64,000 nt of DNA from Gammaproteobacteria bacterium (GCA_022825505.1 JAJDWR010000044.1:2220-66219), one strand, 5' to 3'. Positions 15,639 to 35,191 are shown, numbered from the stretch's first letter. Notes: a model not told the origin generated them from the sequence alone. Numbers and translations are program-made.

Positions 15639-16661
15639 TCAGCCCAATGACATGCGCGGCCGCCCCTGCAGGTGGCGGACGCGCTCGAAGACGTCGACGC
15701 CCATCTGTCCCAGCAGGTCGATCATGTCGATGGGGACCCAATTTTCGGCGATCAGGCCGTCTTCGACGCGGTAGAAGTCCATGACCCGCATGCCCACGGA
15801 CCTGCCGGTGGCGGGCATGGCCAGGAATCCGGGGCCCAGGTGCGTCGCCACCACGCTGGGCCAGCCGCCCGTCACTGCGTAGTTGCCGTCCCCGAGCTGG
15901 CCGAAATGATGCTCGACGCGGCGGTCGGGAAAGGCGCGCAGGAACGGGATCTGGTGGTGGGCCCGAAATCCCCGGAGTCCGCGGGTCGTGCCGATGCCGG
16001 ACGGTCCGTACCAGAGGAAGTCGGGCGTCCAGTATCGCTCGTGGTCCATGCTCTCGATGCGCTTGCCATCGAACCGGAGCAATCCGGCGTGCATCAGCCT
16101 GACCAGTCGGAGCGACTCGGCACCACGTGCCGGATCGACGACGTCAGGCAGGACGCCGTCCTGCGTCGCCGGCCCGGGCCAGCGGCCCTCGGCGCCGAGC
16201 GCCGGAGCAATGGGGTAGCAGCCGGCCTGGCGCATCAGGTCGAGCAGGTCGGCAATCATCCAGGTCACCGAAATCCTGCCGTTGACCAACCGATGAACTT
16301 CCCCGTAGCGGATGTGTACGACGCCATGTGTCGGCGGGATGTCGAAAAGGGGTCTGGCGAAAGTGCCCTGAAAGTGACCCATGACCGCGACCAGGTCCCG
16401 GCCGTCGGATTCGCCGGCAATCAGGATCGAATCGCGGCGCTGAAAATCGGAAAGTGCGAATCGCAGCGGACGCCAGAGTGAATTCGCGATCGCGGCGGCG
16501 CCGGTACACTCGTTGACCGGGTGGAAGGCAAACAGGCGGGCGTCGTCCGCATAGACCGTACCGGCCGAATCTTCGAGATCGTCCCCGGAGGCGCGGCACA
16601 GCGCCTGCAGGCGGCGGTGTACACATCGCTTGTTTCGATTGTGCGCCTCAGTCCGCGTCAT
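15639..16661 (-). CDS. Tandem SnoaL-like/NTF2-fold (ester cyclase-like) protein, type A copy 1
   Basis: Two ~150-aa modules, each ending in the ester-cyclase-like pattern (..IPPTHGVVHIRYGEVHRLVNGRISVTWMIADLLDLMRQAG.. and ..MPATGRSVGMRVMDFYRVEDGLIAENWVPIDMIDLLGQMG..). Paralog of 32793..33800. Start moved to Met13 (16661) by alignment with the paralog. Confidence 0.7.
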   Translation of the reverse strand: MTRTEAHNRNKRCVHRRLQALCRASGDDLEDSAGTVYADDARLFAFHPVNECTGAAAIANSLWRPLRFALSDFQRRDSILIAGESDGRDLVAVMGHFQGTFARPLFDIPPTHGVVHIRYGEVHRLVNGRISVTWMIADLLDLMRQAGCYPIAPALGAEGRWPGPATQDGVLPDVVDPARGAESLRLVRLMHAGLLRFDGKRIESMDHERYWTPDFLWYGPSGIGTTRGLRGFRAHHQIPFLRAFPDRRVEHHFGQLGDGNYAVTGGWPSVVATHLGPGFLAMPATGRSVGMRVMDFYRVEDGLIAENWVPIDMIDLLGQMGVDVFERVRHLQGRPRMSLG

Positions 16662-17727
16662 TCGTCCGGTTGCCGTCACCGGCCGCGCGGTGATCAAGGG
16701 AAGAAATCATGAGTGCCGGCTGCGGATCGTCACCGCCACGTACGACATAGGCTTCGACCCGTTCGGCGCCGAAATTACCGAAACTGCGCCGCATCCCGAC
16801 CGGAATGGTCAGCACGTCGCCCGGACCGAGTTCCACCGAATCGACGCCGAGCGACACGTTGAGCGCCCCCCTGTGCATGAGAATGACTTCTTCCTCGCGC
16901 CGGCAGTGCGGCGCGGTTTCCGCACCCGGCAAGGCTGTAAACAGGCGCAGGTTGAATCCGTGCGGCCAGTCGATCTTGCCCGCATCCAGACCGTCCGCCC
17001 CGCCTGCAGACCCGATGATCGGCAACTCCCGAACCGGTTCCGGATCCTCGTCCGGTACCCCCAGCAGTTCGCGCCGCCGGACGATGCAGTCGCCCAGCCG
17101 TTCGGTGGTGAGCCGGTCGAGCCGGGCAACGTCCTCCTCGCTGGTCGGCCGCATGGCGCGCTTGCTGTCCGGAATCTTCTCGCCGCGAGAGGTGTCCACG
17201 AGACTGCCGTCCTCAAGGAGTATCAATCCATGCTCCGCCGCCTGATCGAATACGTAGGGCGCCCAGGTCACCATGCCGGGGTCGTCGCCGCCCAGCACGG
17301 CAAACATGTACCCGACATCGTCGCCGACGTTCTCGAACCCACGGAACACGTGGATTGGGATGGAAATGGTATCCCCGGGACCCACCGTCACTTCGCCGTC
17401 CCCGCAGTCGACGCCGGTGTAGAACGCCCACTGCCCGGAATGGATGATGAACACCTCGGCGGTTTCATGGCTGTGCTGGGAGTTGATGCAACCCGGAGGC
17501 TGGCGGGCGCCGCCGATGTTGAATCCGTGCGGGATGTCGATGTGCACGTACTGATCGGGGTTCTCGGCGACCCCGGGACCGATGATCGTGAAGTTCTCCT
17601 TCTCGGTGCTTCCGGGCGTTCGGGTGTCGATGAACGCGGTAGTGCAGGGCCGCAGATCCCGGTATCGTACCAACCGCTCCGCAAGGAGCGCTGCATGACG
17701 GCTTTCCGACGATATACTCTGGACCAT
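16648..17727 (-). CDS. Bicupin protein (N-terminal cupin with HxHxxxE metal motif)
   Basis: First module has ..NSQHSHETAEVFIIHSG..GPGDTISIPIHVFRGFEN.. Second module has ..APHCRREEEVILMHRG..GPGDVLTIPVGMRRSF.. Start set at ATG 17727 because the track start (TTG 17796) coincides with a promoter -35 and the conserved operator. Confidence 0.7.
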   Translation of the reverse strand: MVQSISSESRHAALLAERLVRYRDLRPCTTAFIDTRTPGSTEKENFTIIGPGVAENPDQYVHIDIPHGFNIGGARQPPGCINSQHSHETAEVFIIHSGQWAFYTGVDCGDGEVTVGPGDTISIPIHVFRGFENVGDDVGYMFAVLGGDDPGMVTWAPYVFDQAAEHGLILLEDGSLVDTSRGEKIPDSKRAMRPTSEEDVARLDRLTTERLGDCIVRRRELLGVPDEDPEPVRELPIIGSAGGADGLDAGKIDWPHGFNLRLFTALPGAETAPHCRREEEVILMHRGALNVSLGVDSVELGPGDVLTIPVGMRRSFGNFGAERVEAYVVRGGDDPQPALMISSLDHRAAGDGNRTNDAD

Positions 17728-17767: not shown

Positions 17768-17796
17768 AATGTACTTCGAATGCAAAACCAATTCAA
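17768..17796 (-). promoter_or_regulatory. Putative sigma70-type promoter (-35 TTGAAT, 17-nt spacer, -10 TACATT) overlapped by the conserved 17-mer TTTGCATTCGAAGTACA (17770-17786, minus orientation)
   Basis: Minus-strand read: TTGAAT-tggttttgcattcgaag-TACATT. The 17-mer is identical to the site at 24169-24185. Lies 43 nt upstream of the bicupin ATG, in the divergent region shared with the SnoaL type B gene. Confidence 0.55.
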
Positions 17797-20242: not shown

Positions 20243-21289
20243 TCAGTCCAAGTCCGCCGCGAATTCGGCTGAACTGCCCCGGATTCGCTCGCCGGAGAAC
20301 ACGCGCTTCTCCGCCGAGAGTTCGGGATTCCCGATGCGGTCGATCAGCATGGATACGGCGGCTTCGGTCATCCGCTTGACGGGTTGCCTCACCGTGCTCA
20401 GGTCGTACGCCGCGTATCGAGCCGGCCCCGTACCGTCGAATCCGACGATGGACACATCTCCGGGAACGTCGAGACCGTAGGACTCCCGTGCTTCGTCGAT
20501 GCAGCCGATGGCCATGACGTCATTGGCGGCGATCACGGCGTCCGGCGGGCCGCCGCGCCGGTCCACGATCCCGGCGAACGCGGACCGGCCGCTGTCGTAT
20601 CCATAGTCTCCGGTGACGATCGTCACGCCGTCGACGCCTTTTTCCCGGAGTTTCTGCAACGCTCCCGTGGTGCGCTCCGTGCTGACCGACGAGTCCTCGG
20701 GTCCGGAGACGATGGCGAACGTACGGTGGCCGGAGTCGAACAGTTCCGCCACGAGCCAGCGCTCGCCCTCCTCCTGATCGCAGCGCACGGAATTGGAGGG
20801 AATGTCCGGCAGCGACCGGTTGTAGAACACGATGGGAATGTTGGCGTCCTGCACCGTTGCAAGCTGCGCACGGGAGAGCATCGCGGCGGTGACGATGCCG
20901 TCGACCCGAAACTGCAGCACCTGTTCCAGCGTGGAGTCGATATCGCCCTCGCTCTTCAGCGTGAACAGCAGCACCCGGATGCGGTGGTTGGAGAAATGCT
21001 GGGTGAGCTGGACGAGGACTTCAGGGTAGTAAAGGTTGGTCTGCTGGGACATGATCACCGCGACCATGTTGGAACGCTGGGTGATCAGGCCCCTGGCAAT
21101 CGCGTTGGGCCGGTAGCCGAGCTTGCCGGCGGCGGCCATGACGCGCTTGCGCATCTGCTTGGAGGCGCTGGCGCCGTCCTGAAACACCCGCGACACGGCG
21201 GACTGGGAGACGCCCGCGAGTTCGGCAACGTCGTAGGACGTGGCGCGCTTCCACCTCGCCCGGGTGCTTTTCTGTGTCTTTTCGCTCAC
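20243..21289 (-). CDS. LacI-family transcriptional regulator
   Basis: N-terminal HTH ..ATSYDVAELAGVSQSAVSRVFQDGASASKQMRKRVMAAAGKLGYRPNAIARGL.. followed by a periplasmic-binding-protein-like sugar-binding fold, 348 aa. Confidence 0.9.
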   Translation of the reverse strand: MSEKTQKSTRARWKRATSYDVAELAGVSQSAVSRVFQDGASASKQMRKRVMAAAGKLGYRPNAIARGLITQRSNMVAVIMSQQTNLYYPEVLVQLTQHFSNHRIRVLLFTLKSEGDIDSTLEQVLQFRVDGIVTAAMLSRAQLATVQDANIPIVFYNRSLPDIPSNSVRCDQEEGERWLVAELFDSGHRTFAIVSGPEDSSVSTERTTGALQKLREKGVDGVTIVTGDYGYDSGRSAFAGIVDRRGGPPDAVIAANDVMAIGCIDEARESYGLDVPGDVSIVGFDGTGPARYAAYDLSTVRQPVKRMTEAAVSMLIDRIGNPELSAEKRVFSGERIRGSSAEFAADLD

Positions 21290-21357
21290 GCTGACTGTTC
21301 GCCGTTCTCCACGGCCCGTGCCCGATGCGGCTGATGGTAGGCAGTATAGAAGCCGCG

Positions 21358-21391
21358 TGCAATTGCATTCGAATGCGATGCACCGGAGAAT
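21358..21391. promoter_or_regulatory. LacI-type palindromic operator (GCATTCGAATGC, 21365-21376) in the divergent lacI/symporter region, with a possible -35 TTGCAT / -10 GAGAAT promoter
   Basis: TGCAATTGCATTCGAATGCGATGCA contains a perfect 12-bp palindrome centred on CG, fitting the TGnnAnnCGnnTnnCA LacI-family pattern. It shares TTGCATTCGAA with the 17-mer sites. It sits 75 nt from the lacI start and 83 nt from the symporter start. Confidence 0.55.
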
Positions 21392-21459
21392 CGTGCGCTG
21401 GCCGAAGGCTGCAATGCCGGAACGCGGGGCAGGCGGCAGCGCTCACAATCGGGAGTCAC

Positions 21460-23070
21460 ATGGGCACATTCGGGACGCTGAACTGGGCGATTCTCATTGC
21501 CTACGTGCTGCTCAACCTGCTGCTCGGCTTCGTCCTGAGCAAGCGGATCGCCACCGCCGAGGATTTCTACCTGGGCCGGCGTACGACGCCGTGGTGGGCC
21601 ATCGGCATATCGGTCATTGCCACCTACGTCAGCGCGCTGTCGTTCCTGGGCGGCCCCGCGTGGTCCTATTCCGACAGCCTGGCGGTCATCGCGATCCACC
21701 TGAACTACCCCATCGTCGTCTTCATCGTGGTGACGTATTTCCTGCCGTTCTTCTTCAACAGCGGCGTTGCGTCGATTTATGAGTACATGGAGCGGCGCTT
21801 CGGCGCGACCTCCCGCAGCGTTATTTCCGGGGTGTTCCTGGTTTCACAGGCGCTGACCTCGGCTGCGATCCTCTACGCCACGTCCCTCGTCATCCAGTTC
21901 ATCACCGGGGTCGACGTCGTGACGGCCATCGTCGCGGTCACCATCATCGCGCTGATCTACACGATGATGGGCGGCATCACCGCGGTGATCTGGACCGACG
22001 TGATCCAGGCCGCGGTCCTGTTCGTCGGGGCCTTCATCGTCTTCTTCGCCCTGCTGGGCGAAATGCCTGCGCCGGTGGGCGAAGTCCTCGCCGACCTCAA
22101 GGCCCAGGGCAAGACGAACCCCCTGGACTTCTCCCTCGACTGGAGCGTCGAGGCGACGGTGTGGTCGGGAATCATCGCCATGACGATCTTCCACGTCACC
22201 GTCTACGGCGCCAATCAGATGATGGTGCAGCGCACGCTGGCGGCCAGGAACATCGGCGATGCCAAGAAATCCTTCCTGCTGATGGGGTTCGGCGCGTTCT
22301 TCATCTACTTCCTGTTCTTCCTGCTGGGCATCCTGTTCTACGGCTATTACGAGGGAAGGGAGTTCGAGAACGGCAACACCATCATCCTGGAATTCGTCGC
22401 CGATTACGGGATGCCGGGCCTCATGGGCATCATCGCCGCCGCCATCGTGGCGGCGTCCATGTCGTCGCTGGACTCGTCGTTCAATTCGCTGGCGACGATT
22501 TCCACCGTGGATTTCTACGAGAAGTACTACAGGCCCGGCCAATCGCCCGAACATTATCTGAGGATCACGCGGGGCTTCACCGTGGTCTGGGCGCTGCTCA
22601 TCATCGTTCCCGCGATCGTCTATTCCCAGAGCGAAGGCTCGATTCTGCAGACGCTGTCGCGGATCGGTTCCTACTTCGTAGGCGCCAAGCTCAGCATGTA
22701 CGGGCTCGGATTCTTCTCCAAACAGACCACGGAACGGGGCCTGCTGGTGGGCGTGGCGGTGGGATTCGCGGTGATCTGGTACGTGGCGGTGCAGACCGAC
22801 ATCGCCTGGCCCTGGTATTGCCTGATCGGCGGTGCCTCGAATATCGTTATCTCGCTGGTGGCCAGCCGGCTGATCGACGGACGCCAGGAGGAATGGTCCG
22901 AGTACTCGATCGTGGGCCAGCAGACGGCGTTCCGGGAGCGGGGGCTGTCCGAACAGGACGGCGGTTGGTACCTGGTTCCCGGCCGGGTGGATAGAATCAG
23001 CTACCTGTTACCGGGATTCTTCGCGCTGACGATCGTGTTCCTGTTGCTGTTCGAGCAATTGATTCCATGA
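21460..23070 (+). CDS. Sodium:solute symporter (SSS) family transporter, copy 1
   Basis: ATG 21460 (GGGAG 4 nt upstream) inside ORF 21325..23070. 536 aa, polytopic. SSS-type N-terminus MGTFGTLNWAILIAYVLLN..GRRTTPWWAIGISVIATYVSALSFLGGP.. Confidence 0.85.
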   Translation: MGTFGTLNWAILIAYVLLNLLLGFVLSKRIATAEDFYLGRRTTPWWAIGISVIATYVSALSFLGGPAWSYSDSLAVIAIHLNYPIVVFIVVTYFLPFFFNSGVASIYEYMERRFGATSRSVISGVFLVSQALTSAAILYATSLVIQFITGVDVVTAIVAVTIIALIYTMMGGITAVIWTDVIQAAVLFVGAFIVFFALLGEMPAPVGEVLADLKAQGKTNPLDFSLDWSVEATVWSGIIAMTIFHVTVYGANQMMVQRTLAARNIGDAKKSFLLMGFGAFFIYFLFFLLGILFYGYYEGREFENGNTIILEFVADYGMPGLMGIIAAAIVAASMSSLDSSFNSLATISTVDFYEKYYRPGQSPEHYLRITRGFTVVWALLIIVPAIVYSQSEGSILQTLSRIGSYFVGAKLSMYGLGFFSKQTTERGLLVGVAVGFAVIWYVAVQTDIAWPWYCLIGGASNIVISLVASRLIDGRQEEWSEYSIVGQQTAFRERGLSEQDGGWYLVPGRVDRISYLLPGFFALTIVFLLLFEQLIP

Positions 23071-24104
23071 AGCGGTTGACCGCACTCGCCCTGGCCTGGT
23101 ACCTGCCGGCGGCCGCCACGGCACTGCCCGCGCCCTTGTCCATCGACGCGCTGCGCGAAACCGATTTCTCCGCCAGCCTGCAGTTCGAACGCGAGCTGGA
23201 TGGTGGACCCGGTTACACCGCCTACCTTGTGTCGTACCCGTCCTCCGGCCTGACGGTCTTCTCGATGGTAGCGGTCCCGATGGGTGAACGCCCCGCTGCC
23301 GGGTTTCCGGTGATCGTGGCCAATCACGGTTTCCACCCGGACCCTCCCCGGTACGGCTTTACCGCGGACGGCGTGGATTCCAGGCCGGGCGACTACTACC
23401 GCCCGATACCGGAGCTGTACGCGCAGCATGGATTCCTGGTCATCATGCCCGACTACCGGGGCCATAACGCGTCGGAGGGGGTGGAGTACACGGACGGTTT
23501 CCTGGCGACTGGCTACTACTCCGAGGACGTGCTCGCGCTGCTCTCGGGCCTTGCGGATATCAAAGAGGCCGATACCGGCAACGTTTTCATGTGGGGGCAC
23601 TCCCTGGGCGCGGAAGTCTCGTTGCGGGCCCTGCTCGCAACCGATCGGGTCGGGGGCGCGGCGCTATGGTCCGGCGTCGGCGGCGAGATCTGGGACCAGG
23701 CCTACTACTACCAGCGTTACGACGACCGGTTCGCCTACGACGGCAGCGACCTGGAAAACTCGCGAATCGAAGAACTCCGCCGGGACATGGCGGCACTCGA
23801 CGAGCCCTACGACTGGACCACCCGCGAGCCGCTGCGCTACCTGAACTATCTGCGGGCGTCCATCGTGATTCACCACGCTGTCGGCGACACCGGTGCGCCC
23901 TACCACTGGTCGGAGCGTCTGGCGAAGGAACTCTATCTGCTCGGTCACCCGTACCGGTTCCATAGCTACCCCGGCCCCGACCATTTCTTCAAGGACGAAA
24001 CGCTGACGGAGGCGATTGAGCGGGACGTCGAGTATTTTCGCTCACTGATTCGGCCCGCTGACCTGGAAGCGCAGCCTGAATTGAATTCGCAGTCTGACCG
24101 CTGA
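23067..24104 (+). CDS. Secreted alpha/beta-hydrolase (S9/dienelactone-hydrolase-like serine hydrolase)
   Basis: Signal peptide MKRLTALALAWYLPAAATA. Nucleophile elbow GHSLG, later Asp (HHAVGDTG) and His (GPDHFF). The ATG overlaps the symporter stop (ATGA). Confidence 0.7.
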   Translation: MKRLTALALAWYLPAAATALPAPLSIDALRETDFSASLQFERELDGGPGYTAYLVSYPSSGLTVFSMVAVPMGERPAAGFPVIVANHGFHPDPPRYGFTADGVDSRPGDYYRPIPELYAQHGFLVIMPDYRGHNASEGVEYTDGFLATGYYSEDVLALLSGLADIKEADTGNVFMWGHSLGAEVSLRALLATDRVGGAALWSGVGGEIWDQAYYYQRYDDRFAYDGSDLENSRIEELRRDMAALDEPYDWTTREPLRYLNYLRASIVIHHAVGDTGAPYHWSERLAKELYLLGHPYRFHSYPGPDHFFKDETLTEAIERDVEYFRSLIRPADLEAQPELNSQSDR

Positions 24105-24158
24105 CGGGCGCTGCACAGGGCCTGTTGTTGCAATTGTGCTACGGTTTTCGCATGAAAT

Positions 24159-24195
24159 TTGACATTGATTTGCATTCGAAGTACAAACGAATGCA
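24159..24195 (+). promoter_or_regulatory. Putative promoter (-35 TTGACA 24159-24164, 17-nt spacer, -10 TACAAA 24182-24187) overlapped by the 17-mer TTTGCATTCGAAGTACA (24169-24185) and the inverted repeat TGCATTCG-N9-CGAATGCA (24171-24195)
   Basis: Read directly from the sequence. The 17-mer is identical to the bicupin promoter site. The inverted 8-mers are exact reverse complements. Lies 61-97 nt upstream of the TBDR ATG 24256. Confidence 0.6.
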
Positions 24196-24255
24196 GTTGT
24201 CGTGGACGCTGGCAGAGAGGGTCTGTCAGCGGAAATCGTCTTCCGTTCCGGGGAT

Positions 24256-26808
24256 ATGCAAGAGATGAAGGTAAAGGATCAGTTGGCCGTTTCCGGCCTG
24301 AAGAAAAAAGCGTTGGCGGTTGCAGTGGCATCTGCGTTGGGCAGCTCGGCAGGGGCGCAGGAACTCGTACTCGAAGAGATCATTGTCACCGCGACAAAAC
24401 GCGAGAGCAGCGTTCAGGATCTCGCCGTGTCGGTGACGCCCATTGACGGCGACCTCATCAACGAACTGCAGTTGGTCAATGTGCTCGATATCGACAAGAC
24501 CGTACCCGGTCTGAAGGTCAGGTACATCGGTGCCGATCCAACCATCATCATGCGCGGCGCCGGAGCGGCCGGCACCAACGACATCGCCGTGCCGATCTAC
24601 GTCGACGGCCTGTACCGCCCGCGGGCGGGCCAGGCGCTGGCGAGCAATCTCGATCTGGAACGGATCGAGGTCCTGCGCGGCCCTCAAGGGACCTTGTTCG
24701 GTCGAAATACCTTCGGCGGCCTGGTCAACTACATCACGAGGAGACCATCGACGGAAGACATCGACTACGGCGTCAGCGGGACATTCGGCGGCTATTCCAT
24801 GCAGAAGTTCGAAGGTTTCTTCAATCTGCCCATGGGAGACACGGTGGCATTGCGCATTTCGGCCAGCGACACCAAACGGGATCCGACGATCGAGAACATC
24901 TACAACCCGGACGCGGGTATGCGCGACGAGGACAATACCTATATTCGCGCCCAGTTGCGGTTCGAGCCGAGCGATACCTTCGACCTGACGCTGGCGAGTA
25001 CCTGGTGGGAAGACACCTCCAACGGCAATGCGGACTACGCGGGCGTGCTCATCGGAATTCCCGTGAACCCTCGGACGGGGCTGACCGACGGCATCAACGG
25101 CGTGCTTCAGCCGCGGGCGGGCCGCCTCCCCGGTGACGAAACGGCGTCATGGCCTGCCACGGGCGGCCGCACATGGGCGGGGGTATTCGGCGTCGATGAA
25201 ACCGCGAATGTCAACTCGGACGTATACAAGATCACCAACGACCTGACGCCTTTCCGGGACATTTCGGAGACTTCGTTCAGCGCATTGCTGAATTGGGATT
25301 TCGGGCCGGTCGCATTGCGTGTGAACGGCGGCGTGTTCGACTACGAGGAATTTCGCACCGCAGACTCCGATTTTTCGCCGAACCCGACGGCGTGGGCGGA
25401 AAACAATCCGGGCGAGACGCCGCCCGCGTCCAACGGCCGCGGCTATTGGGCTCAGTGCTGGAACGGGCCGTCCTGCGGGCGCCTGGCCGGTCAGCGGGTC
25501 AATTCGAATGCGCAACAGGTGGACATAAACCTCAATTCTTCCGGGGATGGTCCGCTGCAGTGGACGCTGGGTTATTTCCTCTACGACGATTCCGGCGACG
25601 GCGATACGAGCAGCGAGTTCGTCTGGGGGTACGTGGACAGCCTGAATAACGATACCAGCCTGTCCTGGGCCCACTGGATGGATCAGGCCAATGGCGGTAC
25701 GAAATCCACTGCGATTTACGGCCAGGCGGAGTACTCCTTCACTGATGCTACGCGAGCCACGCTCGGACTGCGCAGTTCAACCGATAAACGCAACTCCTTC
25801 ACCAAGTATGTTGACTGGGGTTCCGCCGTTCATGGCTGGGCGGCGGGCTACACCGACGCGCATCTGGAAAACCCGGGCAGCCGATTCGATCCCTGGCCCG
25901 CCTACGTTGCAACCGACGCAACGGAGGCCAATCGCCAGACCGGCGAGAAGTCGAATACGGACTACAAGGTCGCGATTCAGCATGACCTGAACGGCGATAC
26001 GATGTTGTTCGCGTCCGCCTCGACCGGGTACATCGCTGGAGGTCTCGTAGGCGGCGGAAGCACGGAACTGACGCAGCCGAACGAAGTCGAGACCTTTGAG
26101 ATCGGCCTGAAGAGCACGCAGCTCAACGGCGCCATGCGGCTGAATCTCGCGGCGTACCAGAACGCCTACGATGGATTGACCACCTCGTCCTTCGAAGCAC
26201 GGGGCGGAACCATCATCTCCATCAGCACTGTCTCCGGCAGCATGACCACCAGCGGACTCGAGGCCGAAATGGACTGGTTGGCCACCGACGAACTGCGCAT
26301 TCGGGCTGGTCTGGCGCTGACCAACGCCAAACTTGATCAATTCGGCCGCACGGTGTTGAACCGGGTATTTCGAAGCGGTGGAGACGAAGTCGTCCTGGGC
26401 GCCGGCATTACCGATCCCGACATGTGCGATCAGACATGCTCGCAGGTGTATATCCTTGACGGACAATCGGCACGGTTTTCGCCCGATATGACGCTGTCGG
26501 TCGATGCGAGCTACGAGTTCAACCTGGGTAACGCGGGAACACTCGTTCCGGGCGTCCTCCTGTATTACTCGGACGAGTACAAGACCACCAATATCCCGTA
26601 CTTCTTCACCCATCAGGACGCCTATACGACGCTTGATCTGCGGGCAACCTGGTACAACACCGACAATTCGCTTTCAGTGCAGGGCTTTGTGCTGAATGCA
26701 ACCGACGAGATCGTGCAGATCGGTTCGGATCAGTTCAGTCAGGGGCGTGTAGTCGCCGATTTCAATACTCCGCGCATCTGGGGCGTCCGCGTGGCCTATA
26801 ATTTCTGA
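24256..26808 (+). CDS. TonB-dependent outer-membrane receptor
   Basis: Signal peptide then ..LEEIIVTATKRESSVQDL.. (TonB-box/plug), ..LERIEVLRGPQGTLFGRNTFGG.., C-terminal ..RIWGVRVAYNF. Start chosen at ATG 24256 within ORF 24202..26808. Confidence 0.9.
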   Translation: MQEMKVKDQLAVSGLKKKALAVAVASALGSSAGAQELVLEEIIVTATKRESSVQDLAVSVTPIDGDLINELQLVNVLDIDKTVPGLKVRYIGADPTIIMRGAGAAGTNDIAVPIYVDGLYRPRAGQALASNLDLERIEVLRGPQGTLFGRNTFGGLVNYITRRPSTEDIDYGVSGTFGGYSMQKFEGFFNLPMGDTVALRISASDTKRDPTIENIYNPDAGMRDEDNTYIRAQLRFEPSDTFDLTLASTWWEDTSNGNADYAGVLIGIPVNPRTGLTDGINGVLQPRAGRLPGDETASWPATGGRTWAGVFGVDETANVNSDVYKITNDLTPFRDISETSFSALLNWDFGPVALRVNGGVFDYEEFRTADSDFSPNPTAWAENNPGETPPASNGRGYWAQCWNGPSCGRLAGQRVNSNAQQVDINLNSSGDGPLQWTLGYFLYDDSGDGDTSSEFVWGYVDSLNNDTSLSWAHWMDQANGGTKSTAIYGQAEYSFTDATRATLGLRSSTDKRNSFTKYVDWGSAVHGWAAGYTDAHLENPGSRFDPWPAYVATDATEANRQTGEKSNTDYKVAIQHDLNGDTMLFASASTGYIAGGLVGGGSTELTQPNEVETFEIGLKSTQLNGAMRLNLAAYQNAYDGLTTSSFEARGGTIISISTVSGSMTTSGLEAEMDWLATDELRIRAGLALTNAKLDQFGRTVLNRVFRSGGDEVVLGAGITDPDMCDQTCSQVYILDGQSARFSPDMTLSVDASYEFNLGNAGTLVPGVLLYYSDEYKTTNIPYFFTHQDAYTTLDLRATWYNTDNSLSVQGFVLNATDEIVQIGSDQFSQGRVVADFNTPRIWGVRVAYNF

Positions 26809-26861
26809 GTCACATTTGCTAATCACGGCCGATCGGAGGCGCGTCCGCCGCTCGAAATCCT

Positions 26862-26896
26862 GAAAGCCTCGTCAGTGCGGGGCTTTCCTGTTTCTG
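26862..26896 (+). terminator. Possible rho-independent terminator after the TBDR gene
   Basis: GAAAGCC(tc)-gtcagtgc-(gg)GGCTTTC hairpin followed by cTGTTTCTg. Confidence 0.4.
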
Positions 26897-26917
26897 CCGG
26901 GGGCGCTACGAAACCGC

Positions 26918-28789
26918 ATGGTACGAGACCCTACGACGATGCTGAGAGCCGGATTCGATGCACAGCAGAAGGGTCATGTTCGGCAAGCCGAGCGCCTGTA
27001 TCGGCAGGTGCTGGAATCCGATTCCGGAAACAGGCACGCGCTGAACCTGCTCGGTGCGCTTTGTGCCAACACGGAACGGCCGAAGGAAGCGGTGGATTTC
27101 ATTACCCGGGCGCTGGGGATCGACAATGCCGATCCCCAGGCACACGCCAACATCGGACTGGCCTACAAGGACCTGGGGATGGCGTACAAGGCCGCCGATC
27201 ACCTGGCAGAATCGGTCAGGCTGGATCCGTCCAGACCGGTGGTGTTCAACAATTTCGGCAACGTACTGCGATTGCTCGACCAACCCGGAAAGGCGGTCCG
27301 CGCGTACGATCGTGCGCTGCGGCTGGACAGCCGTTTCGCCGAGTGCTGGAGCAACCTCGCGGCTGCGCTCAACGAATCCGGTCAGCAAGAGGCCGGTTTG
27401 CGGGCAGCGGCGAGGGCGCTTGAACTGAGTCCGGATCTGGCCCAGGCGCACAACCACATCGGAGACATTCGCCTTCAACAGGCCCGGTACGACGATGCGG
27501 TGGAAAGCTACCTGCAAGCCGCCAGCCTCAGTCCCGGGAGCACGGTCGCCCTGATCAATCTGGCCAAGGCCTATCGGGACAGGGACGAGCCGGAGGAGGC
27601 GCTGACCGCATTGCGCAGGGTGTTGGACATCGAGCCCGAAAATCCGGAGGCAATGCACGTGATGGGCGTGCTGCTCGAACAGATGGGGGATCGGGAGGGC
27701 GCGGCCGAACAGTTCAAGTCGGCGATCCGCATCGCTCCCGAAATGGCGGTATCGCACTATTACCTGGCTCAGATCAAGGGACGCGGAAGCTCGGAACAAG
27801 AATTCCGGGCGCTTCTCTCGCATTGGCAACGGGAGGATACGACGCCGAACAACCGAATGTACCTGGCATTCGCGATCGCGCGAATTCACGAGCAGCGGGG
27901 CAATTTCAATGAGGCGTACGAGTTCCTGGCCGCGGCGAACAGGGCGAAAGCTGCCGTAAAGCCCTACGACGATGCCGACTCGGCTCGTTACATTGACGCC
28001 ATTGCCGAAGCGACAGAAAAAGCAGTCGAACGATTCGGGCGTTCGATGGGGCATCGGGACGACCGGCCGGTATTCGTGGTGGGCATGCCCCGCTCCGGTA
28101 CCAGCCTGACGGAGCAGATCCTGGCGAGCCACTCGGAAGTCGCAGGCGCGGGGGAACTGAGTTTCGCTTTCGACACGGTCCGGCGCGTACGCAAGATCAC
28201 CGGCAAGAAGTTTCCCCGGGACATGGAAAAACTGTCGGCGGAACAGTTCCGGGAGCTGGGCGCCTACTACATGTCCCGCCATTCCGGCGAATACCTGTCG
28301 TCGCGATACGTCGTCGACAAGTCGCCGCTGAATTTCCAGTACGTCGGACCGCTTGCGCTCATGCTGCCGGGTGCGCGCTTTGTCCACTGCCATCGCCATC
28401 CGGCCGCCAATTGTCTCGCGATTCACCGCATTCCCTTCGATCTGCGGCAGACGTATGCGCACAGCCTCGAGGCACTGGGCAAGTACTACACTCGCTACTG
28501 GAACCTGATGCAGCAGTGGCACGAGCTGTTCCCCGGACGCATACTCGATGTGCGCTACGAAGACACGGTCACCGATATCGAGGGGCAGGCCCGCCGCATG
28601 CTGGATTTCCTTGAGTTGCGGTTCGAAGAACGCGTATTGAGCTTTTATGAGACGAAACGCCTGGTCAAGACGCCGAGCGCCAGTCAGGTGCGGGAGCCGA
28701 TCTACAGGGACGCCATGGTCCTGTGGAAAAACTACGAGAAACACCTCGGACCGCTGATGGAGAATCTGAAAGTGCCCATACCGGGCTGA
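26918..28789 (+). CDS. TPR-repeat-containing sulfotransferase family protein
   Basis: N-terminal ~380 aa of TPR-like repeats. C-terminal domain with PAPS 5'-phosphosulfate-binding loop GMPRSGTSL and ..RYEDTV.. region. 623 aa. Confidence 0.85.
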   Translation: MVRDPTTMLRAGFDAQQKGHVRQAERLYRQVLESDSGNRHALNLLGALCANTERPKEAVDFITRALGIDNADPQAHANIGLAYKDLGMAYKAADHLAESVRLDPSRPVVFNNFGNVLRLLDQPGKAVRAYDRALRLDSRFAECWSNLAAALNESGQQEAGLRAAARALELSPDLAQAHNHIGDIRLQQARYDDAVESYLQAASLSPGSTVALINLAKAYRDRDEPEEALTALRRVLDIEPENPEAMHVMGVLLEQMGDREGAAEQFKSAIRIAPEMAVSHYYLAQIKGRGSSEQEFRALLSHWQREDTTPNNRMYLAFAIARIHEQRGNFNEAYEFLAAANRAKAAVKPYDDADSARYIDAIAEATEKAVERFGRSMGHRDDRPVFVVGMPRSGTSLTEQILASHSEVAGAGELSFAFDTVRRVRKITGKKFPRDMEKLSAEQFRELGAYYMSRHSGEYLSSRYVVDKSPLNFQYVGPLALMLPGARFVHCHRHPAANCLAIHRIPFDLRQTYAHSLEALGKYYTRYWNLMQQWHELFPGRILDVRYEDTVTDIEGQARRMLDFLELRFEERVLSFYETKRLVKTPSASQVREPIYRDAMVLWKNYEKHLGPLMENLKVPIPG

Positions 28790-28801
28790 ACGTCGATCCA
28801 T

Positions 28802-31009
28802 ATGAGCATTACGCGTCGAAAATTTCTGGAGTCCTCTGCAGCAGTCACGGCCGCGGCGCTTGGCAGCGGTTGCCAGACGGTTGCAACGCCTGCAACCGGC
28901 GACTCGGCCGGCGGGCGCCGCCCGAATCCGGACCGTAAACCGAACATTCTGATCGCGGTACTCGATGACGTCGGTTTCGGCGACCTCGGGTGCTATGGGT
29001 CGGATGTTCCCACCCCATGCATCGACCGTCTGGCCGCCAATGGCGTCCGCTACAACAACTTTCATGTGACGTCACTGTGTGCGCCGACCCGGGCAAGCCT
29101 GCTGACCGGTGTCAATGCTCACGCCGCCGGTGTGGGAAACATCGCCGAATGGGGGCGGGACCATCCCGGATACCGTGGCTGGATTCGCGACGATGTACGC
29201 ACACTGGCCGAAATTCTGGGCCCGGCAGGCTACCAAAACTACGCAGTGGGCAAGTGGCACTTGTCGACCGTGACGGGCCGCAACGCCACCGGCCCTTTCG
29301 ATCAGTGGCCCACGGGCAGGGGATTCGATCACTGGTACGGCTTTCACGGCGCGGCGGCCGATCACTGGCACCCGGAACTGTTCCGCAACCGCAGGGCGAC
29401 GTATCCGGACAAGACCGCAGGCTACCATCTGACCACGGACCTCGTGGATCAATCCATGGCCTTCATCCGGGATCACCTGGTCGCATCGGCCGATGTACCG
29501 TTCTTCCTGTATCTCTCGTTCGGCGCCTGTCACTTTCCCTACCATGTCCCTGCCGACTACATGGCAAGGCATCGCGGCGTTTACGACGCCGGATGGGATG
29601 CGATACGCGAGCAGAGATTCGCTCGCCAGCAGGCGATGGGGATCGTGCCGGCCAATGCGGAACTTGCCCCGCGCGACGAACTCGTGCCCGCCTGGCGCGA
29701 TATTACCGACGACGAGAGGCGGTTCGGTGCGCGAACGCAGGAAGCGTATGCGGGGTTCCTCCACCATACGGACGATCAACTGCAACGCCTCGTGGACTTC
29801 CTGGAGCGAAGCGGGCAGCTTGACGACACCATCCTCATGGTCCTGTCCGACAACGGCGCCGGCTCCTGGGGACCTCCCGCCGGCCGGCTGGACGTTCACC
29901 GAGTCGTCTACATCGAACCGGAGACGATCGGGGAGCTGATCGCCAATATCGACAAGGTCGGCAGCGAACGGAGTCAGCCGAGCTACGGTCCCGGTTGGGC
30001 ACAGGCCAGCAATACGCCTCTCAAGTTCTACAAGGGCGACACGTACGAAGGCGGCATCCGCGCGCCGCTGGTGGTCCATTGGCCCGGCGGCGACCTGCCG
30101 GGAAACGAGATCCTCACGCAATACCATCACGTGACGGACATCGTGCCGACGCTCCTGGAACTGGCCGGTCAACCGGCGGAGCCCCTGGACGGCATCAGCC
30201 TCGCCTATACGCTGGATTCGCCGAACGAACCGACGCGCAAGGAGATCCAATACTACGAGACCGCCGGAGACCGCGCGATCTGGATGGACGGATGGAAAGC
30301 CGTCACTCAGCATGTGTCCGATACGCCCTTCGAGGAAGACGAATGGGCGCTCTACCATTCACGGGACGACTTTTCCGAAATCCACGACAGGGCGGCGGAG
30401 TTTCCCGCCCGTGTCGAGGAAATGGTTGCCGCCTGGAGGTGGGAAGCGGAGCGCAACAATGTGCTTCCGCTGGTGGACGATGTGCTGTCGCTCGAGGCGG
30501 GCGTCGCGCCGCAGCCGCAATCCCGCTACGTGTTCTACCCCGATACCACCCGCATCGACCGCCGAAGCGCGCCGGACATCTTCAGCCACGACTACACGAT
30601 TCTGGCCGAGGTCGAGATCGTCAGCGGCCCCGCCAACGGGGTGTTGCTGGCATCCGGCGACAGCATGGCAGGGTACGAATTGTTGATGATCGACGGGTAC
30701 CTTGAATTCACCTATGTGTATACGCGCGGTCAGCGCTACTCGGTGAGGTCCGGGGATCGCGTTCCCGACGGCCGGCACGAACTGGGATTGCGCGGCCGAA
30801 AGACTTCCGCAACCTCCGGGCATGTCGAACTGTTTGTCGACGGCAACTCGGCCGGGTCCGTGGATATTCCCGGGATGTGGGAAGTCAGGAGCCTGAACTC
30901 AGGGGTGCGCTGCGGCGAGAATCGCGGCGCACCGATCAGCCACTCCTACACGGGTTCGTTCAGGTTCGACCAGATTCTCGAGCGGCTCACCGTCACTTTG
31001 GACATTTGA
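28802..31009 (+). CDS. Arylsulfatase-family (formylglycine-dependent) sulfatase with Tat signal and C-terminal LamG/jelly-roll-like domain
   Basis: Twin-arginine signal MSITRRKFLESSAAV..ALGSGC (possible lipobox). Sulfatase signature ..SLCAPTRASLLTG.. (C-x-P-x-R) after ..ILIAVLDDVGFGDLGCYG.. 735 aa. Confidence 0.9.
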   Translation: MSITRRKFLESSAAVTAAALGSGCQTVATPATGDSAGGRRPNPDRKPNILIAVLDDVGFGDLGCYGSDVPTPCIDRLAANGVRYNNFHVTSLCAPTRASLLTGVNAHAAGVGNIAEWGRDHPGYRGWIRDDVRTLAEILGPAGYQNYAVGKWHLSTVTGRNATGPFDQWPTGRGFDHWYGFHGAAADHWHPELFRNRRATYPDKTAGYHLTTDLVDQSMAFIRDHLVASADVPFFLYLSFGACHFPYHVPADYMARHRGVYDAGWDAIREQRFARQQAMGIVPANAELAPRDELVPAWRDITDDERRFGARTQEAYAGFLHHTDDQLQRLVDFLERSGQLDDTILMVLSDNGAGSWGPPAGRLDVHRVVYIEPETIGELIANIDKVGSERSQPSYGPGWAQASNTPLKFYKGDTYEGGIRAPLVVHWPGGDLPGNEILTQYHHVTDIVPTLLELAGQPAEPLDGISLAYTLDSPNEPTRKEIQYYETAGDRAIWMDGWKAVTQHVSDTPFEEDEWALYHSRDDFSEIHDRAAEFPARVEEMVAAWRWEAERNNVLPLVDDVLSLEAGVAPQPQSRYVFYPDTTRIDRRSAPDIFSHDYTILAEVEIVSGPANGVLLASGDSMAGYELLMIDGYLEFTYVYTRGQRYSVRSGDRVPDGRHELGLRGRKTSATSGHVELFVDGNSAGSVDIPGMWEVRSLNSGVRCGENRGAPISHSYTGSFRFDQILERLTVTLDI

Positions 31010-31020
31010 TGGAGCACTAG

Positions 31021-32628
31021 ATCAGCAGTTTCGGCACACTGAACTGGGCGATCCTGATTGCCTACATCGTCGGTACGCTTGTTCTGGGGTACTTCCTCAG
31101 CAAGCGCGTCAAGACCGCACAGCATTACTTCGTCGGCCGGCGAACGACGCCCTGGTGGGTGATCGGGGTGTCGGTTGTCGCCACCTATATCGGCGCGCTC
31201 ACGTTTCTGGGTGGACCGGCCTGGTCATACGTGGATGGATTCTCGGTCATCTTCATCCACATCAACTACCCCATCGCCATCTTCATAGTTGCAACGCTGT
31301 TCCTGCCGTTCTTCTACAACAGCGGTTGCGCGTCCATTTTCGACTACCTGGAGCGGCGCTTCGGCCTGACCTCGCGAACCGTCATGTCCGCCGTCTTCCT
31401 GCTGGGGAACATCGCCTACTCGGGAATCATGCTGTATACGACGGCGCTGGTGCTGGAGTTCATCACCGGAATCGACGTGGTTACCGCGATCCTGATCGTT
31501 GCCGCCGTGGCTGTCACCTATACCATGCTGGGCGGGATATCCGCGGTGATCTGGACCGATTTCATCCAGACAGGGATCCTGTTTTTCGGCGCCATCGTCA
31601 CGGTTGTGCTGCTCTTGGGTGAGTTGCCCGGGGGCCTTCACGAGACACTTCAGTCGCTCAAGGCGATCGGCAAGACCAACCCCTTCGAAACCACCATCGA
31701 CCCGTCCGTCGTCGGAACCATCTGGACCGGGGTCATCGCCATGTCCATCTACCACGTGGTGGTCTATGGGGTGAACCAGATGATCGTCCAGCGCACTCTG
31801 GCGGCCCGGTCGGTGGGCGATGCGAAGAAGGCCTACATCCTCATGGGCTACGTGGCGTTCTTCATCTTCGTGCTGTTCTTCGGACTTGGCATCCTCTTCT
31901 ACAGCTACTACGGCGGCAGGCCGTTCGACAACGAGAATCTCATCGTGCTGGAATTCGTGGCCACAATGGGATTTCCCGGATTGATGGGCATCGTGACGGC
32001 GGCGATCGTGGCCGCTGCCATGTCCAGCCTGGATTCGAGCCTGAACTCCATGGCGACGGTGACCACGCTGGACTTCTACGAGAAGTTCTTCAAGAAGGAC
32101 GGGTCCCAGCGGCATTATCTCGTCGCTTCGCGGTGGTTCACGCTGTTCTGGGCGGTGTTCATGGTGGTGCCGGCGATCATCTTTACCCGCTCGGGCGGGT
32201 CGGTGCTCGAGATTCTCAGCAAGGTCGGTTCGTTCTTCGTCGGCGCGAAGCTTGCCATGTTCGGTCTCGGGTTTTTCTCCAGGCACACCAACGAAAAAGG
32301 GCTGTTGATCGGCGTGGCCGCCGGTTTCGTGGCGCTGGCATACGTGGAGTATGCACTGGACGTTGCATGGCCCTGGTATTGTGCTCTCGGTGGAATCGTA
32401 AGCGTCGCGGTGGGCTGGACGGCGAGCATTCTGCTGGGCGGGTTCCGGAATGAAGACGATCCCTATACGGTTAGGGGGCAGCTTCGGCGGTACGAGGAAG
32501 AGGGGCTACCGTTGATGGAAGGGGGGTGGTATGTGGTCGCCGGGAAGATCGACCGTGCCAGTTATCCGTTACTGGCGTTCTTTGTGCTTTGCGTGATCGG
32601 TCTCTGGATCACCGAAACTCTGATTTAG
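31021..32628 (+). CDS. Sodium:solute symporter (SSS) family transporter, copy 2, with a defective or non-canonical start
   Basis: Clear full-length paralog of 21460..23070, with roughly three in five residues identical in a by-eye alignment. Homology begins at ATC 31021 (ISSFGTLNWAILIAY.. versus MGTFGTLNWAILIAY..). In-frame upstream lies ATG(31009)-GAG-CAC-TAG(31018). The first canonical start downstream is GTG 31159, which would delete TM1. Confidence 0.75.
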   Translation: MSSFGTLNWAILIAYIVGTLVLGYFLSKRVKTAQHYFVGRRTTPWWVIGVSVVATYIGALTFLGGPAWSYVDGFSVIFIHINYPIAIFIVATLFLPFFYNSGCASIFDYLERRFGLTSRTVMSAVFLLGNIAYSGIMLYTTALVLEFITGIDVVTAILIVAAVAVTYTMLGGISAVIWTDFIQTGILFFGAIVTVVLLLGELPGGLHETLQSLKAIGKTNPFETTIDPSVVGTIWTGVIAMSIYHVVVYGVNQMIVQRTLAARSVGDAKKAYILMGYVAFFIFVLFFGLGILFYSYYGGRPFDNENLIVLEFVATMGFPGLMGIVTAAIVAAAMSSLDSSLNSMATVTTLDFYEKFFKKDGSQRHYLVASRWFTLFWAVFMVVPAIIFTRSGGSVLEILSKVGSFFVGAKLAMFGLGFFSRHTNEKGLLIGVAAGFVALAYVEYALDVAWPWYCALGGIVSVAVGWTASILLGGFRNEDDPYTVRGQLRRYEEEGLPLMEGGWYVVAGKIDRASYPLLAFFVLCVIGLWITETLI

Positions 32629-32648: not shown

Positions 32649-32799
32649 GTCGTGAGGTTGTGTGCGGACAGCCCTCGCGGGCTTAACTTCACCCGCCATC
32701 CCTGGCCGGCTCAAATCGGCGCGCGGCGCTCCTGGCCGTCCATGGCCCAGCGCCGCGCGCACGACGCCCGCGAGGGCTGTCCGCACACAACCTCACGAC
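32649..32799. repeat. Palindromic intergenic repeat, family copy 3
   Basis: 33-nt arms gtcgtgaggttgtgtgcggacagccctcgcggg (32649-32681) and cccgcgagggctgtccgcacacaacctcacgac (32767-32799) are exact reverse complements. The core is the conserved cttaac..cccgccatccctggccgg..ggcgctcctggccgtccatggcc..cacgac. Confidence 0.9.
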
Positions 32800-33800
32800 T
32801 TTGTCGGGCTGATCGAAGTGCAGCGGTCCAGGGCGTCTACGCCGAGCAGGCGGAGGTAGTGAAGTAGGTCGATGAAGATCCAGTTTTCGGCCAGCTTGTC
32901 GCCGTCGCGGCGGTAAATGTCGACGACGCGCATCTCCGTGGGCCTGCCGGACGCGGGCAAACCGAGAAAGCCTTCGCCCTGTTTCATGTTCATGTTGGGC
33001 CAGCCGAACCAGCCGCCGTAGGTGCCTTCTGCGTGCTCCAGCACGTGGCCGTTGAAGCGGATGTCTACCAGGCCGCGGCGAAACGGCTGCTGGTGCTGAA
33101 GCTGGTACCGTTCGATGGTACAGGTGGCGCCGATTCCCCAGGGGCCGAACCAGATCATGTCTTCGTGCCAGGTCCTGCGCAGCATGTCGGCGGGCGATTC
33201 CATGCTGTCGCCGACAAGGTCGTCGCACATCCGAAGGATGAGGTCCAGGGTCTTGCGGGATTCGGCCTCGTCCTGGGGGTCGAAAAGCACGCCGTCGGCG
33301 GTTCGCGGCCCCGGATTGACGATTGCGGCGCCGGTCTGTACGGGCAGCGGTTGTAGTCCCGCCTGCATCATTACGCTGATGATGTCCACCCAGAGCGCCG
33401 ACTCGGCGATCCGTCCGTCTTCGATGCGATGGAACTCGCAGTAGGGCAGGAGCACGATCTTGCCGGTGGGAGGGATTCCCAGCCAGGGGTTGTCCATGAG
33501 GCCCATGAACTTCCCCATGCTGGTGACCCAGAGTGCGCCGTCGATGAAGTTCGGGCCGGCGAAGAAGATGTCCTGGCGTCGCTGCATGGCATTCAACGAC
33601 TTGCGCAACGGCTGCCAGACCGTGGCCGCGACGGCATCGGCGCCGTCAAGCTCGTTGAACGGGTGGACGCCGCGAAAATGGTAGTTGGCGGCGGCGTAAT
33701 GCCCGATCGCGGCGGCGATTCCGTCCGGCGGGGCGGCTTCGGTCGCCCGGAAGTAGTCCAGTACGATGGCCTTGGCCGTTTGAATCTTGTCGGTACGCAC
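32793..33800 (-). CDS. Tandem SnoaL-like/NTF2-fold protein, type A copy 2
   Basis: 335 aa. Paralog of 15639..16661 (..IPPTGKIVLLPYCEFHRIEDGRIAESALWVDIISVMMQAG.. and ..LPASGRPTEMRVVDIYRRDGDKLAENWIFIDLLHYLRLLG..). The stop codon lies inside repeat copy 3. Confidence 0.7.
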   Translation of the reverse strand: MRTDKIQTAKAIVLDYFRATEAAPPDGIAAAIGHYAAANYHFRGVHPFNELDGADAVAATVWQPLRKSLNAMQRRQDIFFAGPNFIDGALWVTSMGKFMGLMDNPWLGIPPTGKIVLLPYCEFHRIEDGRIAESALWVDIISVMMQAGLQPLPVQTGAAIVNPGPRTADGVLFDPQDEAESRKTLDLILRMCDDLVGDSMESPADMLRRTWHEDMIWFGPWGIGATCTIERYQLQHQQPFRRGLVDIRFNGHVLEHAEGTYGGWFGWPNMNMKQGEGFLGLPASGRPTEMRVVDIYRRDGDKLAENWIFIDLLHYLRLLGVDALDRCTSISPTKS

Positions 33801-33803
33801 GGC

Positions 33804-34960: not shown

Positions 34961-34990
34961 TTTGCATTGGAAGTACATTTTGCCGAATGA
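34961..34990. promoter_or_regulatory. Third copy of the 17-mer (TTTGCATTGGAAGTACA, 1 mismatch) with a distal CCGAATGA half-site
   Basis: 34961-34977 matches the sites at 17770-17786 and 24169-24185 at 16 of 17 positions. Lies in the divergent region between SnoaL type B copy 2 and trpS. Confidence 0.45.
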
Positions 34991-35191
34991 GTGCTTCCGT
35001 GTCATCAGACCAGGCGGTGCGGTGGCCGGATCAGCGGCATCACCAGGGGGTGGCAGAAGGGTTGGCACGCCCCTGCTTTCGCCGGAACCTGTTCTGACGG
35101 GTTGAGACAGCCCGCGCGCCGCCACGCGCCCCGCTTTCGGTTAAAATCGCGCCACCTTCCAGACACCAGTCCCACCGGCTGCCGCAGATCC

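Follow-up and report, generated by a model that had tools for sequence, protein, structure and literature searches.

A conserved asymmetric sequence as predicted operator of a local LacI-family repressor in a gammaproteobacterial gene cluster

The analysed window, a stretch of 64,000 nucleotides of gammaproteobacterial DNA, contains a 17-mer that is repeated upstream of several operons of a conserved gene cluster and very probably serves the LacI-family repressor encoded within this cluster as an operator (Table 1). Its form, termed V15, is best read as an asymmetric operator for this local repressor that is one base longer than the core of the palindrome found upstream of the regulator gene. 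An earlier note on this DNA had interpreted the 17-mer and the palindrome as related operators of LacI type that join the operons in one regulon, and comparative genomics lends strong support to this prediction: the 15-nt core is exactly retained at orthologous promoters of loci whose flanks are not alignable and whose LacI proteins are 50–75% identical, and alphaproteobacterial orthologues carry a perfect palindrome at the corresponding promoters. The regulator, three operator forms, and the target operons define a predicted regulon for a cluster of uncharacterised function, and the operators allow the members of this regulon to be listed in any genome.

The 17-mer, the palindrome and the regulator gene in the window

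The 17-mer TTTGCATTCGAAGTACA occurs twice in identical form, once on each strand, and a third time with one mismatch (C to G in the central CG), which confirms the sequence match reported previously. When up to three mismatches were allowed, these three sites were the only matches in the whole 64 kb. In shuffled sequences 0.04 matches are expected by chance and three matches were reached in none of 100 shuffles, so that the repeat is far beyond chance. The octamer TGCATTCG is present in six copies in the window, four of which lie in the operators described here, with about two copies expected by chance. Half-sites at 40263 (5′ of miaB) and 48032 (in leuS) were rejected as operators, as they have no partner half and their number is at chance level.

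Site 1 points to the bicupin gene and lies 43 nt 5′ of its ATG at 17727. Orthologous bicupin promoters carry the exact form in L001, L004, L005, L007, L009, L010–12 and many other loci. Site 2 points to the gene of a TonB-dependent receptor, is located about 80 nt from the likely ATG at 24265, and has exact counterparts at the receptor promoters of at least 15 related loci. Site 3 lies 29 nt 5′ of the ATG of SnoaL_D (34934, minus strand) and is oriented away from this gene. SnoaL_D orthologues carry, at the equivalent place and in the same orientation, the form with a central GG (L090 and L091), an exact V15 (L092), or V14, the third form described below (L093). Since the central CG, normally an important element in binding by LacI-family proteins, is replaced by GG, site 3 may be a weaker operator in this lineage, with CG being present in more distant relatives. 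Its earlier assignment to the SnoaL pair holds in that the site would serve this pair, but the arrangement differs from that at sites 1 and 2, the GG-containing sequence being reversed and lying downstream of a -10-like box. A role of site 3 in driving trpS was rejected because relatives in which two extra genes separate SnoaL_D from trpS retain the site beside SnoaL_D, to which it is therefore assigned.

At site 2, TGCATTCG and CGAATGCA form an inverted repeat with a spacer of 9 nt. This repeat is present in the window as had been described, but it is not kept even in relatives whose LacI is 89–97% identical. The position of the right arm is occupied by CGAGCGTT in L010, CGACTGCT in L012, CGAACGTT in L001, CGAACGCT in L004, and CGAATGCT in L011. 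A functional 25-bp palindrome TGCATTCG-N9-CGAATGCA was rejected as a conserved feature because its right arm differs in every close relative, and CGAATGCA probably is specific to the window and no conserved part of the operator.

The region between the divergent lacI and symporter genes contains the 12-bp perfect palindrome GCATTCGAATGC (21365–21376) inside the 14-mer TGCATTCGAATGCg; its distance is 75 nt to the start of lacI and about 86 nt to the likely start of the symporter gene. The first ATG of the symporter ORF in the window is at 21325. A start near 21463 is indicated because the symporter of relatives starts as a 535-aa protein, and the palindrome consequently lies in true intergenic DNA. 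A palindromic site (TGCATnCGnATGCA) was found 5′ of lacI in 24 related loci. In Woeseiaceae (L005, L007, L009, L014, and others) the block ATACTGCCTAsCATC directly follows the lacI-side operator (TGCAATACTGCCTA...), and in the window (21331–21348, minus strand) and its close relatives it is located 16 nt further from the operator. This block probably holds the lacI -10 box TATACT; with its two distances, the lacI operator would cover the -10 box in one clade and the -35 region in the other.

The regulator gene product has thousands of homologues and matches the Pfam families LacI, Peripla_BP_1, Peripla_BP_3, and Peripla_BP_4, with CcpA, RbsR, PurR, and LacI as nearest solved relatives. Its DNA-binding domain is invariant in 14 homologues of 69–90% identity, and lacI is the sole regulator gene in all five syntenic loci with full annotation (21 kb each, based on Pfam gene tables). 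An identity as CytR was rejected, as the NCBIfam CytR equivalog model scored 156 bits against a cut-off of 436 and the RbsR and generic LacI models scored higher.

Table 1. Features of the window: predicted operators, putative promoters, genes, and putative target operons.
Feature	Coordinates	Strand	Remarks
Site 1, predicted V15 operator	17770..17786	-	core TGCATTCGAAGTACA at 17770-17784; exact match
Site 2, predicted V15 operator	24169..24185	+	core 24171-24185; exact match
Site 3, predicted V15 operator	34961..34977	+	core TGCATTGGAAGTACA at 34963-34977; central CG replaced by GG
Predicted P operator TGCATTCGAATGCg	21364..21377		between lacI and symporter gene
Inverted repeat at site 2	24171-24178, 24188-24195	+	TGCATTCG and CGAATGCA; spacer 9
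Putative bicupin promoter TTGAAT-N17-TACATT	17768..17796	-	sigma-70-type; TTGAAT 17796-17791, TACATT 17773-17768; read from sequence
Putative receptor promoter TTGACA-N17-TACAAA	24159..24187	+	TTGACA 24159-24164, TACAAA 24182-24187; read from sequence
Putative SnoaL_D promoter ATGACA-N17-CAAAAT	34977..35005	-	sole promoter-like site called in 16.5-36.4 kb
Gamma-glutamyltranspeptidase	13610-15331	+	Pfam/NCBIfam
Tandem-SnoaL protein A	15639-16697	-	Pfam
Bicupin	16648-17727	-	Pfam
Tandem-SnoaL protein B	about 17886-18866	+	Pfam
MetE-like protein	19045-20184	-	Pfam
LacI-family regulator	20243..21289	-	348 aa; helix-turn-helix TSYDVAELAGVSQSAVSRVF, hinge YRPNAIARGL
Sodium:solute symporter	about 21463-23070	+	Pfam
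Alpha/beta hydrolase	23067-24104	+	Pfam
TonB-dependent receptor	about 24265-26808	+	Pfam
TPR-sulfotransferase	26918-28789	+	Pfam
Sulfatase	28802-31009	+	Pfam
Second symporter	31159-32628	+	Pfam
SnoaL protein C	32793-33800	-	Pfam
SnoaL protein D	33804-34934	-	Pfam
Tryptophan--tRNA ligase (trpS)	34991-36193	+	longest ORF; match from residue 69; likely start near 35190
Putative target operon 1: bicupin, tandem-SnoaL A	15639..17727	-	Pfam, synteny
lacI / MetE-like operon	19045-21289	-	diverges from operon 2 at common control region
Putative target operon 2: symporter, alpha/beta hydrolase	21463..24104	+	Pfam, gene calls in relatives
Putative target operon 3: TonB-dependent receptor, TPR-sulfotransferase, sulfatase, second symporter	24265..32628	+	Pfam
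Putative target operon 4: tandem-SnoaL D, C	32793..34934	-	Pfam, related loci

Gene cluster and conservation of the sites in related loci

Beyond the cluster both flanks consist of housekeeping genes (the rpoA side; uvrA, miaB, phoH, lnt, leuS), which delimits an island of about 19 kb (15639–34934) that contains at least four tandem-SnoaL "ester cyclase" paralogues. The gene order of operon 3 is also found in L004 and L010. The gene content of the cluster is conserved in related loci (L005, L007, L009, L014, L022, L075, L081) and in most lineages is larger than in the window. Additional genes in these lineages encode a HisD-like (histidinol-dehydrogenase-like) protein that is 70–85% identical across classes, an SDR, an HpcH/HpaI-type aldolase, an amidohydrolase_2 (these four being absent from the window), a second hydrolase, and more SnoaL paralogues. 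The cluster contains no glycoside hydrolases, the bicupin has no sequence relative in the PDB, and the NCBIfam and PDB sequence searches yielded only generic names for the pathway.

Several peculiarities of the window were recorded along with these gene assignments. The starts of the longest ORFs at 21325, 24202, 34991, and 17841 probably are too far upstream for four genes, for which relatives and domain offsets suggest starts near 21463 for the symporter, 24265 for the receptor, about 35190 for trpS, and 17886 for SnoaL_B. In L090 and L091, whose SnoaL_D proteins are 92–93% identical, two extra genes (an FG-GAP/UnbV_ASPIC gene and a DUF6851/vanadium-chloroperoxidase-like gene, at 208–3866) separate SnoaL_D from trpS. 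They are missing from the window (34978–35190), which indicates that about 3.7 kb were inserted or deleted at this junction. At 17832–17846 (minus strand), in the SnoaL_B/bicupin intergenic region upstream of the bicupin promoter, lies a terminator-like hairpin with a T-run (CGCCACTCAATGGCG CTTTTTGAAA), and no minus-strand gene ends there.

For the comparative analysis, about 90 syntenic loci from Gamma- and Alphaproteobacteria with LacI proteins of 47–97% identity were collected. Loci L001–L009 and L090–L093 were fetched via exact-protein look-ups, L010–L089 by using aligned LacI homologues to scan a single genome of each species, and those from L094 onward by searching metagenomes for the 17-mer. 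Conserved helix-turn-helix peptides served as seeds in the locus search, and all proteins obtained share one recognition helix. The closest genome is that of a Candidatus Rariloculaceae MAG (LacI 97% identical). Other carriers belong to the Woeseiaceae, Pseudomonadales, Steroidobacteraceae, SAR92, and Cellvibrionales, and a group with 47–55% LacI identity comprises Sphingomonadales, Hyphomonadaceae, Acetobacteraceae, and other Alphaproteobacteria. The orthologous cluster is also present in cultured strains, namely Sphingomonas melonis AS2.3, S. fennica K101, Sphingobium algorifonticola TLA-22, and Croceicoccus ponticola GM-16 (L052, L075, L050, L084). LacI orthologues of 51–53% identity were also found in MAGs placed outside the Alpha- and Gammaproteobacteria, L044 (labelled Cryomorphaceae, with V14 sites present) and L072 (Burkholderiales), a placement that may reflect mis-binning or horizontal transfer.

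The sequence following TGCATnCG, evaluated for all occurrences in about 1.6 Mb of related loci, falls into three discrete classes, and other continuations are rare: class P (nATGCA), the palindrome TTGCATnCGnATGCAA, was found in 81 distinct contexts, class V14 (nAGTCA) in 67, and class V15 (nAGTACA), which is the 17-mer form, in 82, where the contexts stem from related genomes and do not represent independent events. All of these 230 sites lie outside annotated genes, at median distances of 43–68 nt from a start codon; in the window the distances are 43, about 80, 29, and 75 or about 86 nt. Loci with LacI 50–97% identical carry the core TGCATTCGAAGTACA unchanged at orthologous promoters, and where LacI is 72–76% identical and the flanks are unalignable it is still exact at the bicupin, receptor, and divergent SnoaL_B promoters. 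Loci of sphingomonads, Acetobacteraceae, and Hyphomonadaceae carry the perfect palindrome or V14 at promoters (bicupin, receptor, HisD-like, lacI) where Gammaproteobacteria carry V15. Sphingomonads have the palindrome at the bicupin, receptor, and lacI promoters, with V15 in its place in Woeseiaceae and Rariloculaceae, and the sphingomonad and Acetobacteraceae loci contain up to five perfect palindromes (before bicupin, receptor, the HisD-like operon, and lacI). Regulators with the hinge NALAQGL, which occur in sphingomonads and Acetobacteraceae (L047, L052, L060, L063, L064, L075, L077, L081, L082, L085), are accompanied by 30 P, 2 V15, and no V14 operators; with the hinges NAIARGL or NAIARSL, V14 and V15 are used as well. 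This correlation, which is confounded by phylogeny, may reflect co-evolution of hinge and operator geometry or shared ancestry only.

The metagenome scan yielded at least 120 stretches with at least 127 exact 17-mers. Among the matches listed, cluster-gene homologues occur within 2.5 kb of 111 of the 127; 57 are directed toward a bicupin gene and 17 toward a receptor gene, and some of the remainder toward SnoaL, symporter, or HisD-like genes. The possibility, raised in the earlier note, that the motif is a generic repeat thus does not apply. The other 16 of the 127 listed matches, one of them from a human gut assembly, lie on contigs without a recognisable cluster gene within 2.5 kb (L098, L101, L110, L128, L133, L144, L150, L153, L159, L161, L166, L169, L177, L185, L202, L203) and may be chance matches or further regulon members. 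By estimate, a few tens of chance matches to the 17-mer are conceivable for this collection, whose size is not given.

Predicted operator function and alternative readings

The canonical operator of the regulator would be the even palindrome TTGCATnCGnATGCAA with central CG, and the near-perfect palindrome before lacI and the symporter operon would make the repressor autoregulated. V15 has the canonical left half (TTGCATTCG), and its right half AAGTACA, in place of the palindrome's AATGCA, makes it one bp longer. A repressor dimer would bind with one headpiece on the canonical and with the other on the variant half. Since the right half matches the canonical half at only 3–4 of 7 positions and V15 is no palindrome, recognition by the second headpiece is assumed. 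The operators are predicted to occupy the spacer and -10 region of the bicupin and receptor promoters, the start region of SnoaL_D, and the -35 region of lacI. In these positions over core promoter elements, a bound repressor would exclude RNA polymerase, and a small-molecule inducer, presumably a substrate or intermediate of the pathway, would release it.

A more elaborate version of this mechanism, which can be offered only tentatively and is more doubtful than the operator assignment itself, treats P, V14, and V15 as alternative docking geometries read by one LacI-family dimer and assigned to promoters so that a graded hierarchy of repression and induction results. The palindrome would then belong to lacI and the transport genes and V15 to bicupin, receptor, and SnoaL_B, an assignment kept across orders, and the governed catabolic pathway, which is widespread, would possibly be one for a sulfated or esterified small molecule. 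If true, this would provide a natural system for a headpiece that accepts a half-site lengthened by one bp, with regulator and operators as a handle for finding the substrate.

The discreteness and near base-for-base conservation of V14 and V15, which do not resemble random decay of a half-site, could also be explained by a second, unlinked protein that reads the variant half AGTACA, in which case V15 would be a composite of a LacI half-site and the half-site of a partner, or else a site for a paralogous LacI-type protein encoded elsewhere. The tie between class and promoter across the Woeseiaceae (P at lacI; V15 at bicupin, receptor, and SnoaL_B) fits this explanation too, and the LacI-family protein CytR is known to act only together with CRP (PMC3454398). 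We nevertheless regard a second protein as unlikely: the five fully annotated loci contain no second conserved regulator gene, the variant half is always joined to a canonical half at fixed spacing, and a plain palindrome suffices at the orthologous alphaproteobacterial promoters.

An operator role of the 17-mer must further be weighed against a promoter role, in which the sequence would be the conserved spacer and -10 region of a promoter for a housekeeping or alternative sigma factor and its likeness to the palindrome coincidental. Site 1 fills the spacer of the putative bicupin promoter and the first four bases of its -10 box. With a -35 box defined by four or more of six matches to TTGACA and a spacing of exactly 17 nt, such a box was found at 18 of 24 distinct bicupin contexts, where TTGAAT is kept and the -10 box within V15 reads TACATT in 23 of 24. 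Receptor promoters have a -35 box in 5 of 16 cases and mixed -10 sequences (TACAAA, TACATT, TACATC), with TTGACA or TTGACT kept in the closest relatives (L001, L004, L010–12). V15 ends in TACAWT, position 6 of this hexamer being T in 59 of 82 contexts, and of 31 one-sided cases 26 have it directed toward the gene that follows; V14 lacks such a bias (18 versus 21). The orientation and ending of V15 and the TTGAAT kept at bicupin promoters favour a promoter, but SnoaL_B promoters, with TACAAT within V15 in 14 of 18 cases, have a -35 box at that spacing in 0 of 18. At SnoaL_D, moreover, the reversed operator starts at the last base of the -10-like box (CAAAAT, CAATAT or CAGAAT) in the window and in L090–L093, the equivalents of the putative promoter being TCGACA-N17-CAATAT and TCGACA-N17-CAGAAT in L092 and L093. 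Judged from this putative promoter, the operator would cover the transcription start region of SnoaL_D. As V15 is exact in both orientations (reversed in L092), GTACA is conserved for more than its use as a -10 box. The spacers of ordinary promoters show no such base-for-base conservation between orders, the left half of the 17-mer is the half-site of the lacI palindrome, and V15 is replaced by palindromes at orthologous promoters, all of which makes a mere promoter sequence very improbable.

The promoters proposed in the earlier note fare unevenly in this comparison. The hexamers TTGACA-17-TACAAA and TTGAAT-17-TACATT are present as described, but neither pair was called by a sigma-70 scan with a threshold of at least 9 of 12 matches, TACAAA having no T at position 6 and the other pair reaching 8 of 12. 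The -35/-10 arrangement is well conserved at bicupin and partly at receptor promoters, but not at the divergent SnoaL promoter. As a sequence-based model it is good for site 1 and plausible for site 2, and it is not the arrangement at site 3. A sigma-54 promoter, considered for the resemblance of TTGCAT to a -12 box, was rejected, as a GG-containing -24 element is missing at the appropriate distance, where no conservation is seen either. At receptor promoters of Woeseiaceae, CGTATAKT is conserved 8 nt downstream of V15 and would put the operator over the -35 box and spacer. The box CGTATAGT / CGTATATT, at the same distance in L001, L005, L009, L014, L022, L025, and L041, would represent an alternative -10 box, which the window's own receptor promoter (GCAGTTGTC) does not have. 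The 9-mer TTGAATTGG is located directly before site 1 (17791–17799, minus strand) and again at 34935–34943, where it precedes site 3 18 nt further upstream and overlaps the SnoaL_D start codon; it may be the trace of a duplicated promoter or due to chance.

Finally, a short dispersed repeat (REP- or MITE-like) or structured RNA that does not involve the regulator would account for several copies in one window and for the inverted repeat at site 2, but is hardly credible, given flanks that are dissimilar beyond the promoter hexamers, an inverted repeat that is not conserved, no Rfam match at or above the gathering score on either strand of 15000–37000, listed metagenome copies almost only at promoters of the cluster, and no site within a gene.

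Relation to known LacI-family systems

A repressor operator beside the repressor gene is a routine type of element, and the asymmetric form is modestly unusual. This predicted operator form is conserved across many marine and soil bacteria, and the cluster is widespread in the Woeseiaceae and related Gammaproteobacteria (many assemblies being of marine or sediment origin), sphingomonads, and hyphomonads. A conserved asymmetric operator lengthened by one base would be a small, clean natural case for half-site tolerance in LacI-family proteins, and the ligand of the repressor would name the substrate of the pathway. Neither the operator sequence nor the gene combination of this orthologous group was found in the searchable literature.

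In a survey of 1303 LacI-family regulons, most motifs were even palindromes with central CG and 4% were of odd length; most sites preceded the start codon by 30–140 nt, and autoregulation applied to 72% of the regulators (Ravcheev et al. 2014, PMC4052901). Placement and form of the operator family described here fit this survey. The features shared with local LacI/GalR regulons of sugar catabolism (PMC4052901) are an even palindrome with central CG (TTGCATnCGnATGCAA), a regulator gene within the regulated cluster with a site before its own gene, sites outside coding DNA tens of nt upstream of start codons, conservation at orthologous loci, and several operons per locus that include a TonB-dependent receptor and transporters. 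The inverted repeat with central CG is found in the P site and the consensus, and the 17-mer keeps the CG and one half-site, its other half being one base longer and matching at only 3–4 of 7 positions; at site 3 the CG is replaced by GG. The conservation spans the Rariloculaceae, Woeseiaceae, Pseudomonadales, Steroidobacteraceae, SAR92, Cellvibrionales, Sphingomonadales, Hyphomonadaceae, and Acetobacteraceae. In contrast to these regulons, the genes of the present cluster are not recognisable as sugar-catabolism genes, and an even palindrome and a 15-bp asymmetric form occur side by side in one genome.

CytR of Enterobacteria and Vibrios recognizes the half-site GTTGCATT and tolerates varied arrangements and spacings of half-sites (PMC3454398). 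It shares with the present system the membership in the LacI family and a half-site (GTTGCATT) that contains the same TTGCATT, but its octamers face the dyad the other way (AATGCAAC-GC-GTTGCATT), and it needs flanking CRP sites, none of which are evident here (no TGTGA-type conservation in the flank profile). The targets of CytR are genes of nucleoside catabolism, whereas bicupin, SnoaL-like, receptor, sulfatase, and symporter genes are concerned here, and its recognition helix is VSTATVSR, compared with VSQSAVSR in the present regulator.

The closest formal parallel to V15 is offered by the E. coli lac operator O1, which is pseudo-symmetric and, with 21 bp, contains an extra central bp relative to the ideal symmetric operator of 20 bp. 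Both O1 and V15 combine a good with a divergent half-site and are one bp longer than the symmetric form. O1 also overlaps the promoter or the start of transcription and works by keeping polymerase out or blocking it, as is predicted for the operators of the cluster. Different from E. coli LacI, the regulator (348 aa) leaves, according to the alignment, no room for the C-terminal tetramerisation helix, so that looping between sites would not be expected. V15 further differs from O1 in that it keeps the central CG and has the extra base within the right half-site (AAGT-A-CA), and in that its divergent half is strictly conserved across bacterial orders.
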